64,000 bases of DNA from Chiloscyllium plagiosum (taxonomy: Eukaryota): NCBI RefSeq assembly GCF_004010195.1, contig NC_057718.1:101342629-101406628 (forward strand). Reading direction: 5' to 3'. Position numbers and translations under genes: made by a program. Positions 320 through 57,269 of this stretch are shown one piece after another (within the stretch, counting starts at the first letter, position 1; each line of letters begins with the position of its first letter). The notes beneath the pieces are model-generated. The model did not search any database. It had not been told where the DNA came from and saw only the letters and a program-made list of their open reading frames with translations.

Positions 320-614
320 CGGGAGTTGGACTATAACCTGATGTCATGTGACTTCTGACTTGGTCCATGCATGCTGGTACACCTGCTGAGTTTCTCCAGC
401 AATTCCTCTTTCCTTTCAAATCTCCACCATCCACTGTTCTTTGTTTTATTTAAGTGTATTTGTCTTTGGGGGCACAGGTGATATCAAAGAACTGAACATT
501 ACTGTAATCGAAGTGCACGTAGGAACTGCAAGAGTATATATAAGGGCTTTCTAAAGTTGGGAGCAGGACCTATAAGTGAGGTCATGAGCTACAACCTTGG
601 GGTCTTGAATTCTG

Positions 615-1013
615 TTGAAACTTTATTGCTGGAACAGCACAGCAGGTCAGGCAGCATCCAGGGAACAGGAGATTCGACGTTTCGGGCACAGGCCCTTCTT
701 CAGGAATGAGCAGAGAGTGTTCAGCAGGAGAAGATAAAAGGTAGGGAGGAGGGACTTGGAGGAGGGGCGTTGGAAATGTGATAGGTGGAAAGAGGTCAAG
801 GTGAGGGTGATAGGTCGGAGTAGGATGGAGGCGGAGAGGTCAAGAAGAAGACTGCAGGTCAGGAAGGCGGTGCCGGGCTGGAGGGATCCGGCTGAGACAA
901 GGTGGGGGGAGGGGGGATGAAGAAACTGGTGAAGTCCAAGTTCATCCCCTGCGGTTGGAGGGTTCCCAGTCGGAAGATAAGACGCTCCTCCTCCGACCGT
1001 CGGGTTGTTGTGG
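615..1013 (-). mobile_element. Young 5'-truncated Penelope-like element (Neptune-type): GIY-YIG C-terminus plus pseudo-LTR
   Basis: Minus strand translates TTTTRRSEEERLIFRLGTLQPQGMNLDFTSF, a typical PLE GIY-YIG C-terminal motif. Hammerhead core at 672-707. 13-bp TSD gtcttgaattctg at 602-614 and 1149-1161. Confidence 0.85.
672..707 (-). ncRNA. Minimal type-I hammerhead ribozyme motif (PLE-associated)
   Basis: Minus strand: auuc CUGAAGA a gggc cugu gccc GAAAC GUC gaau; stem I auuc/gaau, stem II gggc/gccc. Confidence 0.75.
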
Positions 1014-1344
1014 TTTGATCAGATCCTCCACAGGAGATGACCTCCTAACCCTAACAATGTACCAACATGGATTAACGCCTGACTAGCCACCAGGATACAT
1101 GAACATCAACTAACCACAAAACAACAAGACCCACTCTCACTAGAACTTGTCTTGAATTCTGACCTGTAACAGCCATGCTCCTGCTGTATTCCCCACCTCT
1201 CTATCCCAGTTCTCACTTTTTGAGAGGGGGGGGGGGGGAAGGAGTTGAGTCACGGCATTTTCCAATCCTCCAAAGGGGCTTGCAGTAGGAAAAGGTTTGG
1301 GAAGCCCTGAATGATTAAGGGGGTTGTGTAGAGGAAGAGGAGTA

Positions 1345-1770
1345 AGCCATTCAGCCCATCAAGCCCGCTCTGCCATTTAAATACGATCATCACAGAATCG
1401 CACTGAATTGTTATGGTGCAGAAAGAGGCCATTTGGCCCATCCTACCTGCACTGATCCTTCGTATGAGCACCATTCCCTAGTGCCAGTCTCCTGCTTTCC
1501 TCTCATATCCTTGCACGGTATTTCTTTCCAAATAACCATCCAATGTCCGTCTTGAATGCCTCAATTGAACCTGCCTCCACCATATTTCCAGGGAGTGCAT
1601 TCCGTGCCCTAACCACTCACTGAGTGAAAAATATTCTCAATTCACTCTTGCGGCTTTTAAACATCCCTTTAAATCCACGCCTCTCTCATTTCTTGTTCCT
1701 TGTGTGAGAGGCAACAGCTTCTTTCTTCTACTCTCTCCAGCCGCCTCATAATTTTGAAAATCTGTATCGA
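1345..1770 (-). mobile_element. Degraded CR1 3' end / 3' UTR fragments
   Basis: ggccattcagccc.. and cctgcctccacca.. motifs shared with other CR1 3' ends in the window. Confidence 0.6.
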
Positions 1771-2069
1771 ATCTATCGCCGAGCGAACACTTCAATGCTT
1801 TTTACCCATACTATGGGTCATTGGCAGTCAGACATGTATCAATCTCTGTTTTTTTACACAGACTAAAGGCCTCAGCTTCCTCAGCTGTCTGTGGGGCACC
1901 GTTCCCTATACATGGTGCAGCCACTGGAGGGTTCCACAAAAGCAGAACAGTGCACTGATGCATTGGCTTCCTCAAAACACTATTGTGCACTCTGTGCAGC
2001 AAGATAAACAGTGAGAAGGAGTGTTACTCTGTGGTGGAGAATTCCAAAAATTCACAAACCTCTGAGTAA

Positions 2070-3187
2070 ACCCAACATCTTCTCATCCTGGTCCTCAATC
2101 GCATCCTTCTTGTTTTTAAGTTGTGCCATGGTTCTGCACTCCCCAATCGGGAAACATCCTACCTATATCTACCCTGTCTATGTCCTAGAGTCATAATCAT
2201 TGAGGTCTATAGCTTGGAAACAGGCCTTCAGCCTAACTTGCACATGCTGCCCAATTTTCACAATTAATCTAGTCCCATTTGCCTGTGTCTGGTCCATATC
2301 CCTCCATCCCTATCCCATCCCTGTACCTAAGTGTATCTTAAATAATGAAATTGTACTCACCTCCACCACTTACTCTGACAACCCATTCCAGACACTCACC
2401 ACCCTGTGTGTGAAAACACTACCCCTCTAGCACCTTTTGTATCTCTCCCCTCTTACCTTAAACCTATGCCCTCTAGTTTCAGACTTCCCTGTGACTTGTA
2501 TTATTTTGTAGGTTGCATTGAGACCATCCCAAATTTTCAAAACTCTTAGAGAATACAGGCCCAGTTTGCCCAGTCTCTCTCCCAGAACTAAATCTGGGTA
2601 ACCTTCATTGCACTCCCCCAATGACAGTAAGAGCTTTACTGAGATAAGGAGACCAAAACTGCACATAACGCTCGGGTTGTACTCTAATCAAACTCCTATA
2701 AAATTGAGGCAAAACTTCACCATTCCTGTAATCAAATTTTCTTGTGAAAAACATTAACATTACATTCACCTTCCGAATAACTTGCACACACCTATGTGTT
2801 AGCCTTCAGCGACTTACCAACAATGACATTCAAGTTCCTTTGCACATCTACGTTTTCCAATTTCTCAACATCTAAGAAATACTCTGCCCATCTATTTCAC
2901 TTACAAAAGTAGATACTTTGACATTTTTTCCACACTATATTCTACCTGCCATGTTCTTGTCCACTCACTAAGCCTGTCAAAATCCCCCGAATACATTTTT
3001 CATCACCCTCACAACACAATTTTGATTAGCTTTGTATCATCTGCAAATTTGGAAATACTACATTTGGTCCTCGCATCCAACTCATTGATATATCAAACAG
3101 CTGGGGCCCAGTCTGGATCCTTGTAGGACTCCACTAGTTTCGCTCAGCTGTTGTGAAAATAACCCAATTATTCCTCTTCTGTGTAAT
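2070..3187 (-). mobile_element. CR1 LINE 3'/RT fragments (nested)
   Basis: ORF track shows VQFWSPYL, LGLYSL, TRGHRFKVRGERYK, GVLQGSRLGP. Confidence 0.8.
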
Positions 3188-3628
3188 TGTGAGGCATTTG
3201 TATGTAGGTTTGCTTGCTGAGCTGGAAGGTTCGTTTTCAGATATTTCGTCACCATATTAGGTAACATCTTCAGTGGGCCTCCGAATGAAGCACTGGTGGT
3301 GTAGCCCACTTTCAATTTATATGTTTGAGTTTCCTTGGGATGGTGATGTCATTTCCTGTAGTGACATCATTTCCTATGGTGATGTTATTTTCTGTTCTTT
3401 TTCTCAGGGGGTGGTAAATGGGATCCAAGTCAATGTGTTTACTGATAAAGTTGAATTGGAATGCCATGCTTCTAGGAATTCTCAAGTGTGTCTCTGTTTA
3501 GCTTGTCCTAGGATGGATGTGTTGACCCGGTCAAAGTGGTGTCCTTCCTCAACCGTATGGAAGGGTTCTAGTGAGAGTGGGTCTTGTTGTTTTGTGGTTA
3601 GTTGATGTTCATGTATCCTGGTGGCTAG
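3188..3628 (-). mobile_element. Penelope-like element (Poseidon-type) 3' fragment with GIY-YIG C-terminus
   Basis: Minus strand reads LATRIHEHQLTTKQQDPLSL..EEGHHFD..NTSILGQAKQRH.*EFLEAWHS; hammerhead core near its 3' end. Confidence 0.75.
3238..3275 (-). ncRNA. Minimal hammerhead ribozyme motif (Poseidon-type PLE)
   Basis: ca CUGAAGA u guuacc uaauau ggugac GAAAU AUC ug; 6-bp stem II, very short stem I. Confidence 0.6.
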
Positions 3629-4690
3629 TCAGGCGTTAATCCATGTTGGTACATTGTTAGGGTTAGGAGGTCATCTCCTGTGGAGGATCTGATCAAAAAA
3701 CCTTCTGAAATTCCGAGAACATTGCATCCAGTTTTATCAGTTTTGTTTGTAAAATCCTCAAAACACTCCAACGAATTTGTCAAACAGGATTTCCCATCCG
3801 CAAATCCATGCTGACTATGAAAGGACACTAGTTAGGCCAGTATTGGAATAATGCATGCAATTCTGGTCTCCTTCCTATCAGAAAGATGTTGTGAAACCTG
3901 AAAGGGTTCCAAAAAGATTTACAAGGATGTTGCCAGGGTTGGAGGATTTGAGCTATGGGGAGAGGCTGAACAGGCTGGGGCTGTTTTCCCTGGAGCACCG
4001 TAGGCTGAGGGGTGACCTTATAGAGGTTTACAAAATTATGAGAGGCATGGATAGGGTAAGTAGGCAAAGTCTTTTCCCTGGGGTTGGGGGAGGACATAGG
4101 TTTAGGGTGAGAAGGGAGAGATATAAAAGAGACCTAAGGGGCAACTTTTTCACACAGAGGGTGGTACGGGTATGGAATGAGCTGCCAGAGGAAGTGGTGG
4201 AGGCTGTTACAACTGCAACATTTAAGAGGCATTTGGATGGGTATATGAATAGGAAGGGTTTGGAGGGATATGGGCCAGGTGGTGGCAGGTGGGACTAGAT
4301 TCGGTTGGGATATCTGGTCTGCATGGATGGGTTGGACCGAAGGGTCTGTTTCCATGGTGTACATCTCTATGACTCTACTGTTGGACATCTCACAGGTCAA
4401 TAGTTCGCTGCTTTCTCTCTCGCTCCTTTCATGAGCAGTGGGGTAAAATTTGCTTTTGGGTCACCTGCAGGAATGGTTGTTGGACTGTTGGAATTTTGGA
4501 AGATGGTTACCAGGCATTGATTATGTCTGACCACCTCCTTCAACATTCTGGCATGTAAACGAACAGACCCTGGAGACTTACCAATTTTGATCCCATTAAT
4601 TTCTCCAGTTACAACATTCTTACAAATAATAATAATTTCTTTCAACTCCTCATTTCCCCTTCGTCACTCAGCCCTCTAATTCTGGGAAAG
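3629..4690 (-). mobile_element. Old CR1 RT fragment, interrupted by a younger CR1 at 3828-4377
   Basis: SQHGFADGKSCLTNSLECFED (3625-3828) and KSPG..LHARMLKEV..IFQNS (4397-4645). Confidence 0.75.
3828..4377 (+). mobile_element. CR1 LINE 3' end
   Basis: ORF 3855-4298 QFWSP..RFTRMLPGLEDLSYGERLNRLGLFSLE.RRLRGDLIEVYKIM..FFTQRVVRVWNELP, then 3' UTR ending ctctatgactcta. Confidence 0.92.
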
Positions 4691-9346: not shown

Positions 9347-9838
9347 AGCAATTAGCAGTCAGCTTGTGCCACCATCAATAAAGTAATGACCCGATAATTT
9401 TTCACTGCTGATGACTTGGGGATAAATATTGTCCAGGATACTGAGGTAATTCCCTGACTTGTCTTCAAATTGTAACGTGTTAATCTTTACAGCTGCCAGA
9501 GAGGTCTAAAGGAACCTTGATTTAACCATTCTTCAAAATGATTGACCCCTCGCTGAATGCAACAGTTCCTCAGCGCTTGTCCTACACATGTAACAATGGA
9601 AGGATTCCATCTCGCCCTAGTTTTGATTTCTCTCTGAGTGAACTTATTCGCAACTTGTTGTTTCTGAGCTTGACTCTTTAAGCTCCTTGATTCAAAATCT
9701 GTCTCTTCTATGCCATTCTTTGTTGGGGACACAAATAAATAACTCTCAGTGTCAATGAAGTGTTGTGTAAGACAGAATTCACCTGGGATATGTAACGAAG
9801 AAGTGGCAGATGAGAGTACAATTGCAACATTCAAAAGA

Positions 9839-10110
9839 TTGAAACTTTATTGCTGGAACAGCACAGCAGGTCAGGCAGCATCCAGGGAACAGGAGATTCG
9901 ACGTTTCGGGCACAGGCCCTTCTTCAGGAATGAGCAGAGAGTGTTCAGCAGGAGAACACTCCTGCTGAACACTCTCTGCTCATTCCTGAAGAAGGGCCTG
10001 TGCCCGAAACGTCGAATCTCCTGTTCCCTGGATGCTGCCTGACCTGCTGTGCTGTTCCAGCAATAAAGTTTCAACTTTGATCTCCAGCATCTGCAGACCT
10101 CACTTTCTCC
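9839..10110. mobile_element. Young PLE family A inverted insertion: perfect 116-bp palindrome plus 36-nt tail, inside a CR1 3' end
   Basis: 9839-9954 is the exact reverse complement of 9959-10074 (loop aaca). TSD caacatt(c/a)aaaaga at 9825-9838 and 10112-10125. Confidence 0.9.
9982..10017 (+). ncRNA. Minimal type-I hammerhead ribozyme motif (mirror copy at 9896-9931 on -)
   Basis: auuc CUGAAGA a gggc cugu gccc GAAAC GUC gaau. Confidence 0.75.
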
Positions 10111-10265
10111 CCAACATTAAAAAGAGATTTGAACCGGTACATGGATTGGAAAGGTTTAAAGGGATGTGGACCAAATGCAGGCAAATGGGACTGGTTCGAT
10201 TTAGGAAACCTGGTCAGCGTGGATGAGTTGGACCGAAAGGTCTGTTTCTGTGTTGTATTAATCTA

Positions 10266-34121: not shown

Positions 34122-34383
34122 ATCGAATCCCTACAGTGGGGGAGCAGATCATCAAGTCCACACAGACCCTCTGAAAGCATCCCGCCCAGACACAACCCCC
34201 GAACCCAATCCTATAACCCTGCATTTCCCAAGGCGAATCCACAACTTCTGAAGGAAACCGGAGCAAACTCATGCAGATGTGGTGAGAATGTGCAAACTTC
34301 ACACAGGCAGTCGCCTGAAGGTGGGATCGAACCGGAGTCCCAGGGGCTGTGAAGCAGCAGTGCTAACCACTGAGCCATTGTGC
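34122..34383 (-). mobile_element. HE1-like tRNA SINE (degraded)
   Basis: agcagtgctaaccactgagcca head on the minus strand. Confidence 0.75.
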
Positions 34384-34656
34384 CTCATTGCCTGACCAGC
34401 AAGCCTCTCCTCCTCTCAAAACCCTTTTGGCAACCTACTTCTGACCAAAGCTATACCTTCCTCCATTTGACTGCCTTTAGCTCAGTATTGTCTGAGTGCG
34501 GGGCTGTGAAGCAGCAGTGCTAACCACTGAGCCATTGTGCCTCATTGCCTGACCAGCAAGCCTCTCCTCCTCTCAAAACCCTTTTGGCAACCTACTTCTG
34601 ACCAAAGCTATACCTTCCTCCATTTGACTGCCTTTAGCTCAGTATTGTCTGAGTGC
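34343..34656. repeat. Perfect 157-bp tandem duplication
   Basis: 34343-34499 equals 34500-34656. Confidence 0.9.
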
Positions 34657-40921: not shown

Positions 40922-41421
40922 NNNNNNNNNNNNNNNNNNNNNNNNNNNNNNNNNNNNNNNNNNNNNNNNNNNNNNNNNNNNNNNNNNNNNNNNNNNNNNN
41001 NNNNNNNNNNNNNNNNNNNNNNNNNNNNNNNNNNNNNNNNNNNNNNNNNNNNNNNNNNNNNNNNNNNNNNNNNNNNNNNNNNNNNNNNNNNNNNNNNNNN
41101 NNNNNNNNNNNNNNNNNNNNNNNNNNNNNNNNNNNNNNNNNNNNNNNNNNNNNNNNNNNNNNNNNNNNNNNNNNNNNNNNNNNNNNNNNNNNNNNNNNNN
41201 NNNNNNNNNNNNNNNNNNNNNNNNNNNNNNNNNNNNNNNNNNNNNNNNNNNNNNNNNNNNNNNNNNNNNNNNNNNNNNNNNNNNNNNNNNNNNNNNNNNN
41301 NNNNNNNNNNNNNNNNNNNNNNNNNNNNNNNNNNNNNNNNNNNNNNNNNNNNNNNNNNNNNNNNNNNNNNNNNNNNNNNNNNNNNNNNNNNNNNNNNNNN
41401 NNNNNNNNNNNNNNNNNNNNN
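40922..41421. other. Assembly gap (500 N)
   Basis: Run of N; preceded by a SINE head at 40855-40921. Confidence 1.
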
Positions 41422-41588: not shown

Positions 41589-41919
41589 GCACCTCACCTC
41601 TGTTTAAAGATGCCACAAAAATATCTGTCAGGGCCCCAGCTATTTCCTCTTTCCCCTCCTTCAGCAACCTGGGATAGATCCCATCCAGTCCTGGGATTTG
41701 TCCACCTTAATAACCCCTAGCCTACCCAACCCATCTTCCCTACTTATACCAACGCACCTCACCTCTGTTTAAAGATGCCACAAAGATATCTGTCAGGGCC
41801 CCAGCTATTTCCTCTCTCACCTCCTTCAGCAACCTGGGATAGATCCCATCCAGTCCTGGGATTTGTCCACCTTAATAACCCCTAGCCTACCCAACCCATC
41901 TTCCCTACTTATACCAACG
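41589..41919. repeat. 165-bp tandem duplication inside the CR1 RT
   Basis: 41589-41753 vs 41754-41918, about 3 mismatches. Confidence 0.85.
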
Positions 41920-42086
41920 TGATCCAGACTAATCAAACTTATATCTCTAATCTCAAGATTCATCATGTTCCTCTCCTCAGTGAACACTGATGCAAAGTAA
42001 TCATTCAGAATCTCACCCATTCTCTCAGGTTCGATACACAGCCTTCCTTCATTATCTTTTAGTGGACCAATCCTTTCTCTAGTTAC

Positions 42087-42803
42087 GTCACCCTGTAACC
42101 ACACCCACACCGTCAGATACTCACCCCCACACCCCACCCACCGTCACCCTGTAACCACACCCACACCGTCAGATACTCACCCCCACACCCCACCCACCGT
42201 CACCCTGTAACCACACCCACACCGTCAGATACTCACCCCCACACCCCACCCACCGTCACCCTGTAACCACACCCACACCGTCAGATACTCACCCCCACAC
42301 CCCACCCACCGTCACCCTGTAACCACACCCACACCGTCAGATACTCACCCCCACACCCCACCCACCGTCACCCTGTAACCACACCCACACCGTCAGATAC
42401 TCACCCCCACACCCCACCCACCGTCACCCTGTAACCACACCCACACCGTCAGATACTCACCCCCACACCCCACCCACCGTCACCCTGTAACCACACCCAC
42501 ACCGTCAGATACTCACCCCCACACCCCACCCACCGTCACCCTGTAACCACACCCACACCGTCAGATACTCACCCCCACACCCCACCCACCGTCACCCTGT
42601 AACCACACCCACACCGTCAGATACTCACCCCCACACCCCACCCACCGTCACCCTGTAACCACACCCACACCGTCAGATACTCACCCCCACACCCCACCCA
42701 CCGTCACCCTGTAACCACACCCACACCGTCAGATACTCACACCCACCCACCGTCACCCTGTAACCACACCCACACCGTCAGATACTCACCCCCACCCACC
42801 GTC
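42087..42803. repeat. Homogeneous C/A-rich minisatellite: 11 x 56 bp + 2 x 49 bp
   Basis: Unit gtcaccctgtaaccacacccacaccgtcagatactcacccccacaccccacccacc; starts at 42087, 42143, 42199 ... 42703, 42752. Confidence 0.95.
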
Positions 42804-43108: not shown

Positions 43109-44048
43109 TTAGCTTAAAACCTCCCCAACAGCAGTAGCAAAAATTCCCCCAAGGACGTTGATTAAAGTCTGGTTTAGATGTAGACTGTTCCTTTTGTAAT
43201 AGGCCCACCTTCCCCAGAACCGGTCCCAATGTCCAACAAATCTGAACGCCTCCCTCCTACACCATCTCTCAAGCCATGTGCTCATCCTGCCTATTTTTTC
43301 ATTTCTACGCTGGCTAGCACGTGGCACTGGTAGTAATCCCGAGATCACTACCTTTGAGGTCCTCCCCTTTAACATTTCTCCTAGCTCCCTGAATTCTTCT
43401 TTCAGGACCTCTTTTCGCTTTCTACTTATATCGTTGGTGCCTATATGCACCACAACCACTGGCTGTTCACCCTCCCCTTCTAGAATGCTCTGCAGCCAAT
43501 CGGTGACATCCCTGACCCGTGCACCTGGCAGGCAACATACCATCCGGGAGTCCCGTTTTCTGCCACAGAACCGCCTATCTACTCCCCTCACAATAGAATC
43601 CCCTCTGATTATGGCCCTACGAGTCTTTTTCCCGCCCTTCTGAACAGTAGTGCCCGCCACGGTGCCATGATCTTGACCACTGCTGCCCTCTCCTGGTGAG
43701 CGATCTCCCCCAACAGTATCCAAAACGGTGTACCTGTTTTGGAGGGAGATGACCGCTGGGGACACCTGCACTGCTTTCCTTATCTTTTTCTGTCTTTTGG
43801 TCACTGTCTCCCTCAGCAATTCTAACCTGCGGTGTGACCAGTTCACTAAACGTGCTATCCAAGACCTCCTCAGCATCGCGGATGCTCCACAGTGAGTCCA
43901 TCTGCAGATCCAGAGCCGTCATGCGGTCAAACAAGAGCTGCAGCTGGACACACCTCTTGCAAGTGTAAGAGTCAGGAACATCAGACACGTTCCCAAGCTC
44001 CCACATCAAGCAAGAGTCACATGCCATGGGTCTGAGGTCCCCTGCCAT
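43109..44048 (-). pseudogene. CR1 ORF1 (zinc finger + SGNH/GDSL esterase domain), frameshifted
   Basis: MAGDLRPMACDSCLMWE..YTCKRC (CxxC..CxxC); GDSIVRG, CLPGARV, VVHIGTND, LHLN esterase blocks; split over two frames. Confidence 0.88.
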
Positions 44049-46333: not shown

Positions 46334-46455
46334 ATATCATCCACACCGTGGGACCTATAGCAAGAGGGAGCTGCGATGAGCGTCTCAAACGTCAGCTGAG
46401 AAACTGCTACGAGGCTTCCCTCAAACTGTTGGAGACGCAGGGGTTGAAATCTATT
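46334..46455 (+). CDS. Internal coding exon of a MACROD1/MACROD2-family mono-ADP-ribosylhydrolase (macrodomain) gene; paralog not resolved
   Basis: Polypyrimidine tract + cag acceptor (46331-46333) and gtaagt donor (46456). The 122 nt read (xAT)-IIHTVGPIARGSCDERLKRQLRNCYEASLKLLETQGLKSI, matching the MacroD motif YVIHTVGPI..L..CY..SL.L....L(R/K)S(V/I), which precedes AFPCISTG. Phase 1 in / phase 0 out, as I recall for the vertebrate MACROD exon. Confidence 0.9.
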
Positions 46456-47162
46456 GTAAGTGTTACTCAGGGAGGTGTCTAGCTCGCTCAAATCTGTTAA
46501 TGATTTGTATAACGGAGTTGGGCCTCCTGAATCTCAAAGTGAGAACTTCAAAGGAGCCTCAGTTTATCGAGAAAATTAGGGCATGGAACTGCAGATCCTC
46601 CCACATGGAGTAGAAATTGACTGTACCATTAATTTAGCATGTGTTAAGTAACAATTGTAGGTTCACATCATTAATGTTTCTTCTGCAATTTAGAGCAATC
46701 CAGTTTTCTGGTCTCTGAATCTGACAATTTTAAGCCGAATGAGCTTGGATGGTGTCCCTGTCAGCCCACTCTGTACATACCCCACGCATGGATTCTGTGC
46801 AATTGTTCGTATTGCATTTGTAATGCTGTGTGGGCGTACAGTCTGCTGTCTACATGTGGGCTAATGCACTATGCTCGGTGCACTGTGTGCAGATACTAAA
46901 TCCTACACGTTCAGATTACATGGGACTGCCAAGTGGTCTGGACAAATGCTGCTAAAATCAAACCAGATACCTGAGGTAACAAGCACAGTCTCACAGAGAT
47001 TATACCAGACACTGCAGCTTGTTTCATTCTGTTCAATGAAATTGTGCAATCCTCCTTGGTCGGAATTCTTGGTAAAGCTTTAGTGATTCCACTGATCTCT
47101 ACCAATCTTTTTGAGCTTAATTGGGGCAATATACTCTGGCCACAAGCCTAGTTGGGAACAAG

Positions 47163-54050: not shown

Positions 54051-55643
54051 CCTTAGAACATAGAGCATTCCAGTGCAGTACAGGCCCTTTGGCTCTTGAT
54101 GTTGCACTTCTGGTTGGTTCCACATGTCAGCACATCTAACCTACACTGTTCCATTTTCATCTATACATTTATTCAATGACCCAAATTCAATGCCCTTAAA
54201 GTTGGTGAGTCTACCACTGTTGCAGGCAGTGCATTCCACGCCCCTCCTACTCGCTGCGTACCTCTGACATCTGTCCTGTGTCAATCACCCCTCAATTTAA
54301 AGCCATGTCCCCTTGTGATAGCCTTCACCATCTGAGGAAAAAGGCTCTCACTGTCCACCCTATCTAACCCTCTGATTATCTTACATGTCTCGATTATGTC
54401 ACCTCTCAACCTTCTTCTCTCCAACAAAAACAGCCTCAGTTCCCTCAGCCTTTCCTCGTAAGACCTTTCTTCCATACCAGGCAACATCCTAGTAAATCTC
54501 CTCTGAACCCTTTCCAAAGCTTCCACATCCTTATAATGCGGTGACCAGAACTGTACATAATACTCCCAAGTGCGGCCGCACCAGTGTCTTGTACAGCTGA
54601 AGCATGACCTCATGGCTCCAAAACACAATCCCTCTACCAATAAACGCCAATGCACTATATCCCTTCTTAACAACCCTAGCCACCTGGGTGGCAACTTTCA
54701 GGGATTTATGCACCTGGACACTGAGATCTCTCTGTTCATCTAAGCAGCCAAGAATATTACCATTAGCCCACTACTCTGCATTCCTGTTACTTCTTCCGAA
54801 GTGAACTACCTCACATTTTTCCTCATTAAACTCCATTTGCCACTTCTCAGCCCAACTCTGCATCTTATCTATGTCCCTCTGTAACCCACAACATCCTTCG
54901 GCACTATCCACAACTCTACCAACCTTAGTCTCATCTGTAAATTTACTAACCCATCCTCTAGCCCACCTCCAGATCATTTATAAAAATGACAAACAGCAGT
55001 GGCCTCAAAACAGATCCTGGTGACACACCACTGGTAGCTGAGCTCCAGGATGAACATTTCCCATCAACCACCACCTTCTGTCTTCTTTCAGAAGCCAATT
55101 TCTGATCCAAAACACTAAATCACCTTCAACCGAAACTCCTTATTTTGTGCAATAGCCTACCGTATAGAACCTTATCAAACGCTTTACTGAAATCCACATA
55201 CACCATGTTAACCGCCTTACCTTCATCCACCTGTTTTGTTGCCTTCTCAAATAACTCAATAAGGTTAGTGAGGCATGACCTACCCTTCACAAAACCGTGT
55301 TCATTATCCCTAATCACATGATTCCTTTCTAGATGATTATCCTATCTCTTATAACCTTTCCCAACACCTTACCCACAACCAAAGTAAGGATCACCTGTCT
55401 ATAGTTACCAGGGTCGTCCTGACTCCCCTTCTTGAACAAGGCAACAACATTTGCTATCCTCCAGTCTTCTGGCACTACTCCTGACGACAATGATGACATA
55501 AAGATTGAAGCCAAAAGCTCTGCAATCTCCTCACTGGCTTCCCAGAGAATCTGAGGATAAATCACATCTGGCCCCAGGGTCTTATCTATTTTCAAATCTT
55601 CCAAAATTGCTAAATCCTCCTCTTTGTCAACCTCAATCCCATC

Positions 55644-55777
55644 CCTTCATTCCTGAAGAAGGGCCTGTGCCCGAAACGTCGAATCTCCTGTTCCCTGGAT
55701 GCTGCCTGACCTGCTGTGCTGTTCCAGCAATAAAGTTTCAACTTTGATCTCCAGCATCTGCAGACCTCACTTTCTCC
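55644..55777 (+). mobile_element. Young PLE family A terminus with tail
   Basis: 55647-55777 is identical to 9980-10110; 13-bp TSD cctcaatcccatc at 55631-55643 and 55776-55788. Confidence 0.9.
55649..55684 (+). ncRNA. Minimal type-I hammerhead ribozyme motif
   Basis: auuc CUGAAGA a gggc cugu gccc GAAAC GUC gaau. Confidence 0.75.
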
Positions 55778-57269
55778 TCAATCCCATCTAACCTTGTAGC
55801 CTATATCTCCATATTCTCACTAACATTGCCCTTTTCCAATGTGAATATTGATGAAAAATATTCATTTAAGCACTTCCCCTATGTCCTCAGATTCCACACA
55901 CAACTTTCCACTACTATCTTTGATTGGCCGTAATCTTTCTCTAGTCATTCTTTTATTCCTGATGTACCTATAGAAGGCTTTAGGATTTTCCTTGATCCTA
56001 TCTGCCAACAACTTCTCATGTCCCTTCCTGGCTCTACTTTGCCCTCTCTTTAGATCTTTATTTGTGTTTCCAGGGTGTATTAAATGAGCACAATTCTTTT
56101 ATTTTAATTGAACATAGGTATTGTATACCATAGCCTTTTGAGATGATGTTCAATGGAGAAAAATACTCAGATTTCCACATACATGTTAAAACAAAATTCT
56201 GCGATTCTGTAATTTGTTGCTGTCTAAACATTGAATTGTAACTTTAAAACTGGACGTAAAAAATGAATGTGCAAGCTTGCCACCTCACGAGATCTGAAAT
56301 TCCATCCCAGAGTTGGGGAGGTATGACTTTGCTTATATAAAAGCTATTTTCTTTTTGGATTCCCCCAGGATTGATTTGTTGACTGTACCGGCATTGTCTA
56401 CAGCAGTCTGGCTGATTAAAAAGCTGGCTGAATTCAGGAACCTGATACTGTGATGTTTGGCATCTGCTTGGCACCAACATCAGTGAGTAAATCTAACAAT
56501 AGCACAGTTGACATGAGATGTGTTCTGAGTCCCTTCGGCTGGTTAATGTCCAACTATCTCACCTTTTGACCAAATGTTAGAATGTTGGAATGATAGCTGT
56601 TTTTTGAGCTTTTCACCATTGAGAGCGTCCAACCAATGCTTTTAATGAGAATCACAATTATTCTGGGATATTCAGTGTCCTTGTGATCTGATCCAATCAC
56701 CAATGTCATCCCTTAGATTACCGGGAAGCAATTGTCACTTATTCAGGAAATGACTAGCCAAGTCTGCAGTCTAAATCTTTAAAGAACTCGCCCTTTTGGT
56801 CTTGTTTATTTAGTTGATAAATTGATGCTAACATTCATCTTTTTGCTTAATTTCCAAAATTCAATTATTTTAAATCTCTTAAATTGTTCTTATCGCTAAA
56901 TGAGAAAAGTCGAAATTGCACGAATTTGAGAAAGGCTTTACTGCTCTTTTATATTCCATTGTTCACACCATTGAATTGTGATCAAATACTACAGGATAAT
57001 GACAATCATTATTTTAATAATATGACAATCAATTAGTTAGTGGTATCAGTTCCCTTTAAAAAACATTCGTTCAATTTAGTGGCTGAGATTCAAGAAATTG
57101 TAGTGAGCAATAATGATTATTTTTAATTACTTTCTTCAATGGTAAGCACCGCATGATACAACAGAAGATATGAAGGGGGGAATATTGTAGAGGTGGTGGT
57201 AGGCTGCATTCTTCTGCCACTACAATCATTAAATTGTAGGTATCTCCACAATGCTGATAGGAAGAGAGT

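Follow-up and report, generated by a model that had tools for sequence, protein, structure and literature searches.

The kind of event described here is already published for L1 elements, as templated insertions, as inverted duplications and as pre-mRNA co-insertion. In the available text of Zumalave et al. (10.1101/2024.08.27.596794), templated insertions number 22 among about 3,600 L1-solo insertions, are shorter than 250 bp and are typically templated within 15 bp; cases at kilobase distance may be present in the supplementary data. According to the accessible part of another report (10.1101/2024.12.14.628481), inverted duplications at the reciprocal end of L1 insertions keep the target-site duplication and need 2 bases for priming; resection is held responsible for deletions within 10 kb, and an inversion is found 2.7 kb from a break. 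Furthermore, the accessible part of Nam et al. (PMC10191854) gives, for normal colon clones, 4 L1 insertions with duplications of 52-220 bp by fold-back, versus one pre-mRNA case. For zebrafish LINEs, extra bases at 5' junctions are described as copied, in the course of end joining, from element DNA or from the flanks (available text of the review PMC4760211).

For Penelope-like elements, the available text of Frangieh et al. (PMC11167929) presents as a hallmark an optional tail of 30-40 nt resulting from two reverse-transcription start sites. In the same text, the later steps that complete the 5' junction are given as unvalidated and fillers at 5' junctions are not mentioned. A literature search conducted mostly outside subscription journals found no comparable capture by Penelope-like elements.

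The insertion, its empty site and its age

The window, which is the whole stretch of 64,000 nucleotides of shark DNA that was analysed, carries a single event of this kind. This event is real and well supported, and very probably represents one integration with local capture of neighbouring DNA. Four of the 24 listed runs of public short-read data were compared with positions 300-1700: X1 and X2 (two samples of organism A from one study), X5 (organism B, a related species) and X19 (raw reads, 4% of the run). Depth of X19 on single-copy flank is nil, so the locus itself is not covered in that animal. The features of the window are the following:

602-614, no strand: left copy of the target-site duplication, 13 bp; its last base also fits the element end (1-nt overlap); single copy at the X5 empty site
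615-1017, - strand: young Penelope-like element, 5'-truncated, without the optional 3' tail (window identities, frame relatives, X19 depth)
672-708, - strand: hammerhead-like minimal core motif (recognised by eye)
about 862-1014, - strand: C-terminal end of a GIY-YIG-type frame (protein relatives)
1014-1017, no strand: 4-nt microhomology between element and donor (X19 reads)
1014-1146, - strand: filler, exact inverted copy of 3565-3697 (sequence match; X19 depth)
1147-1148, no strand: two extra bases that separate the filler from the duplication (templated matches no better than chance)
1149-1161, no strand: right copy of the target-site duplication, crossed by X1 and X2 contigs 1117-1434
3565-3697, + strand: donor, with context continuous on both sides; present in organism B with 6 differences
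9839-10111, no strand: sibling insertion with two 3' ends head to head; 14-bp duplication 9825-9838 / 10112-10125 with one mismatch
46336-46458, + strand: MACROD1/2-like exon, residues 140-180 of 385, Macro domain (protein match)
55644-55775, + strand: sibling insertion with tail; 13-bp duplication 55631-55643 / 55776-55788

As a previous reading of the sequence alone had stated, the filler is the exact reverse complement of the donor (133 of 133 bases). A blastn search of the window with the filler returns only two matches, 1014-1146 and 3565-3697 (E 2e-66), and these inverted arms are spaced by 2,418 bases. The 13-mer at 602-614 is identical to that at 1149-1161, identity stops beyond 13 bases either way, and this one target-site duplication encloses both the element and the filler. 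The sequence-only reading had limited the young 3' end of the element to 615-1013; the element is there, but its family sequence continues to 1017. Given that 1014-1017 are common to element and donor, the unambiguous filler amounts to 129 bases.

An empty allele with a single 13-mer, which that reading had anticipated in other species, occurs in organism B: one X5 contig runs from 428-601 into 1149-1353 with no gap (record positions 177 to 178) and carries the 13-mer once, in agreement with the two copies having been called target-site duplications. Since this contig passes directly from 601 to 1149, the duplication is real and no target bases were deleted at insertion. A second X5 contig carries 1014-1146 on the minus strand with 6 differences in 133 bases, together with a further 35 and 153 flanking bases, and we read it as the donor locus. 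Over five low-copy X5 pieces, organism B differs from the window at 34 of 838 bases (4.1%); at the donor's divergence, the probability of 0 differences in 133 bases is 0.002. Because organism B has the donor without the insertion and the copy is perfectly identical to its donor, the donor is older, and element and filler postdate the species split. Hence, the filler was copied from 3565-3697 and not the reverse, which is the direction already proposed.

In organism A, contigs of X1 and X2 (381-636 and 375-635) span the flank, the duplication and the element end with 0 differences, and a contig 1117-1434 in both samples spans the filler, the extra bases, the right duplication and the right flank. 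The right-junction contigs show one substitution and a G-run length difference. On their short sides, the outer-junction contigs extend over 22 and 30 bases, below the 31-base rule, which is no surprise given that contigs break at repeats. Among the contigs and pieces listed for X1, X2, X5 and X19, none carries the element/filler joint. No empty-site joint is among those listed for X1 and X2, whose contigs drop rare variants and either of which may be the source of the assembly.

We also considered an inversion of 1147-3564 with staggered breaks. It was rejected because the duplication is direct, the donor has unbroken context to its left and right, and the empty site of the relative is collinear.

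The element family, the donor and the host gene

The family of the element is very young and abundant. Three other stretches of the window are 100% identical to the element over 95-118 bases, X19 depth at element positions 958-1004 is about 3,800, and the 64-kb window holds three very young insertions of the family, flanked by duplications of 13, 14 and 13 bp. The frame at the 5' part of the element has 12 protein relatives at E up to 0.001, one of which has a YIG motif upstream of the region that matches; Pfam gave no match for the 51-residue frame piece and no GIY-YIG match in the 6 relatives scanned. As to a reverse transcriptase (RT) in the same frame, a search for longer relatives found none, and the copy is 5'-truncated. 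Both tailed and tail-less copies are present in the window, the optional tail being of about 35 nt and without poly(A). The copy at 615-1017 is tail-less, and 5,726 X19 reads have the tail directly before 614, showing that the family carries it. By eye, 672-708 resembles a minimal hammerhead core. Its fold z-score of 0.53 lends this no support, and Rfam returned 0 matches in the window at the gathering score, this motif included.

The filler is foreign to the mobile consensus of the element, since 2,639 X19 reads agree with the window up to and including 1017 and from there pass into one common other sequence (agreement 0.99), and X19 depth along the filler is 0 at 1052 (3 at 1083). Family copies with the filler make up less than about 0.1%, a rough bound as some reads would stop short of 1052. 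These reads bear out the earlier view that the donor sequence was unlikely to belong to a mobile consensus, and contradict the opposite possibility that it had raised, namely that the 133-bp chimera is attached to many Penelope-like copies. In addition, the filler as a consensus part or a 5' transduction was rejected: X19 reads lack it and no young element adjoins the donor. The first 7 bases of the filler (1014-1020) equal the first 7 of the tail missing here (10076-10082); this 7-mer occurs 15 times in the window, on both strands, and the match may be due to chance.

The donor has continuous context on both sides and is intact in the window. It joins three parts, namely an old GIY-YIG remnant of Penelope-like type, low-copy sequence and the margin of an RT remnant, and its ends coincide with homopolymers, an A6 run and a G3 run. 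Positions 3565-3628 are 77% identical to the shark proteins P0020 and P0021 (RT plus GIY-YIG), which match RVT_1 at E 1.8e-8 and GIY-YIG only weakly (E 0.0027, below the cut-off). With RT and GIY-YIG in one frame of these proteins, the old donor remnant is classed as Penelope-like. In the RT remnant just past the donor, 14 of 28 residues are identical to an RVT_1 frame of the window. The labels previously given to the donor parts, CR1 for the RT and Poseidon for the Penelope-like part, are names that we treat as assumptions. X19 depth goes up at the old Penelope-like remnant, and because it is nil near 1052 the donor junction is low-copy. A stretch 77% identical to the same remnant is found in P0022, a shark 'CUE domain-containing protein 2 isoform X1', and would be an exonised repeat or an annotation error.

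A scan of 216 frames gave one host exon, the Macro domain exon 46336-46458, which is 98-100% identical to bamboo-shark MACROD1/2-like proteins; no other exon of such a protein was found in the 64-kb window. Since it is the sole one, the insertion locus probably lies in a long MACROD intron (at least 46 kb) of a plus-strand transcript. A scaffold gap of 500 N at 40922-41421 separates the locus from the exon, and the strand relation spans this gap; across it, the filler polarity is compatible with the host transcript. Tandem arrays lie close to the right edge of the gap, at 41589-41919 (a pair of about 165 bp) and 42086-42795 (56-bp period). Elsewhere in the window, 34343-34656 is a perfect 157-bp tandem duplication, either a recent event or an assembly artefact, and 43112-43918 on the minus strand is an open frame of 269 residues with a GDSL esterase match (E 2.5e-11), presumably ORF1 of a LINE.

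Two sibling insertions also carry extra bases. At 9839-10111, one 3' end is tailed and the other tail-less; therefore, this pair is not a simple fold-back of one cDNA, and both target strands were probably primed. Its centre holds two extra bases inside an 8-mer that recurs 13 bases away, whereas 55644-55775 has 3 extra bases at its 5' junction. The extra bases at the 5' junctions of both siblings, in one of them with an 8-mer match that may be due to chance, look like repair synthesis and thus speak for the fold-back route described below. The pair 9839-10111 also forms a near-perfect 117-bp hairpin in the intron.

Routes to the filler

The two joints of the filler differ. The joint with the element shows 4-nt microhomology at 1014-1017 (chance of 4 or more, 0.016), and the joint with the target end shows 0 bases of clean microhomology plus the two extra bases 1147-1148, which fit the donor only if two bases of the G3 run are skipped. 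Since both donor ends lie at homopolymer runs, slippage at the A6 and G3 runs could be the source of either junction. A templated origin of 1147-1148 was rejected: within 6 kb, no match across the junction exceeds 7 bases, which is less than chance usually gives, as a match of at least 7 is attained at 362 of 400 random positions. The likeness of 588-598, in the flank left of the duplication, to the donor end 3561-3571 was also set aside, as 3.7% of random 15-mers score equally and two further deletions are needed.

The weights that we give below to the routes and to an artefact are a matter of judgement, not of calculation. The likeliest route, whose chances we put at about even, is fold-back repair synthesis on the resected target end during one integration. 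Staggered nicks 13 bases apart and a cDNA primed at 614 would be the common start for all routes. From the plus-strand end at 614, reverse transcription would begin at the start site that leaves no tail, and the cDNA would halt about 400 bases in. The right-hand target end would be resected over more than 2.5 kb, and its free minus-strand 3' end would acquire two bases, fold onto its own strand near 3565 and copy about 133 bases. The new end would pair with the cDNA end via the 4-nt microhomology, and gap filling would complete the insertion and leave the donor unharmed. Under fold-back the copy can only be inverted, to the 5' side of the element and within resection range; all three properties are seen (3/3), and the L1 inverted duplications ascribed to fold-back provide a precedent. 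Against this route, a priming end with 0 bases and a cDNA end with 4 fit a switch led by the cDNA at least as well. Moreover, published L1 cases prime from small hairpins on the side of the break, the host polarity would suit an RNA template, and the donor distance of 2.4 kb would be far from the 15 bp within which L1 templated insertions typically fall.

The sequence-only reading had proposed a template switch at the 5' junction, onto nearby DNA or intronic pre-mRNA. Local capture at the 5' junction of the element stands; a switch by the growing cDNA does not follow, as fold-back gives equal geometry. Pre-mRNA as the template agrees with the orientation of the host gene, which is read on the plus strand, but gains no direct support. 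This route, which we consider possible but clearly less probable than fold-back, would have the cDNA end switch to nascent MACROD intron RNA by the 4-nt match beside A6, copy 133 bases, add two untemplated bases and jump bluntly to the target overhang. It is consistent with a microhomology that sits exactly at the cDNA end and with the plus-strand orientation of the host gene, as this strand would have to serve as template for the cDNA; this polarity agreement is, however, expected by chance half the time, and the gene strand relative to the locus is read across the scaffold gap. A template jump to the target 3' end is a published model (PMC2912911), and co-insertion of local pre-mRNA is reported in one L1 case (accessible part of PMC10191854). 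On the other hand, with an intron of at least 46 kb, a donor distance of 2.4 kb is not specially predicted, and the halt after 133 bases is left without explanation. A broader form of this route is somewhat more doubtful still: the Penelope RT would switch in cis to host nascent intron RNA by a 4-nt match, and a young high-copy family would in this way plant local inverted repeats and chimeras across shark introns, by a route separate from transduction.

We hold it unlikely that, at the 4-nt match, the cDNA end entered the duplex next to it or a displaced plus strand, was extended by 133 bases, came free and was end-joined to the target, as in synthesis-dependent strand annealing. Four bases are little homology for strand invasion of a duplex, and resection of the right end would remove the plus strand that is needed. 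Furthermore, invasion predicts neither side nor orientation, so agreement with the geometry of fold-back would be a coincidence (about 1 in 4). The junction asymmetry is the same as for the RNA template, and the model is cited for L1 templated insertions in the available text of 10.1101/2024.08.27.596794. Finally, we consider it very improbable that the assembly is wrong here, that two events took place separately or that the filler travels with the element. In favour of these readings, the inner joint is absent from the listed contigs, the assembly may derive from S1 or S2 and a scaffold gap lies elsewhere. Against them, both outer junctions stand in short-read contigs of two samples, the relative has the exact empty site, the microhomology of the inner joint is with family sequence missing from the window, and family reads lack the filler.

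Comparison with known systems

The sequence-only reading had described the locus as capture driven by Penelope-like elements. Capture at this locus holds, but a general process does not follow from one event (n=1) of a kind published for L1. It is a single event, for which no function is shown. Nevertheless, the locus shows that Penelope-like elements can acquire over 100 bases from their surroundings at the 5' junction. L1, with a different endonuclease and RT, does likewise, which points to shared host repair. Since the family is young and abundant, the side and orientation of fillers can be counted genome-wide, and such a count would separate DNA fold-back from RNA switching.

The following comparisons hold as far as the available texts of the sources go. 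As in L1 templated insertions, DNA foreign to the element was copied into the insertion and a genomic segment was duplicated; unlike these insertions, which are somatic and typically templated within 15 bp, the present one is a germline Penelope-like copy with a donor 2.4 kb off. With L1 inverted duplications at the reciprocal end (10.1101/2024.12.14.628481; Nam et al., PMC10191854), it shares an inverted copy of the 5' flank at the 5' junction, a duplication that is kept and a length in the 52-220 bp range. However, those duplications involve small hairpins and 2-bp homology beside the break, whereas the loop here would be 2.4 kb and two extra bases are present. As in L1 pre-mRNA co-insertion (Nam et al., PMC10191854), sequence of a gene near the site was inserted with the element, and the polarity is compatible here; in contrast to that one somatic adenoma-clone case, the shark donor is intronic, no splice mark is possible and an RNA origin is putative.

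The extra bases of the two sibling copies fit those at the 5' junctions of zebrafish LINEs (PMC4760211), in which the template flanks the junction, whereas the donor of the filler is kilobases distant. Like the Penelope-like elements of Frangieh et al. (PMC11167929), the family has an optional 30-40-nt tail, and the cutting and extension of both strands described there can be compared with the head-to-head sibling. What sets this locus apart is its element class, its germline setting and the 2.4 kb over which it reaches; it is one clean natural example and not a new system.
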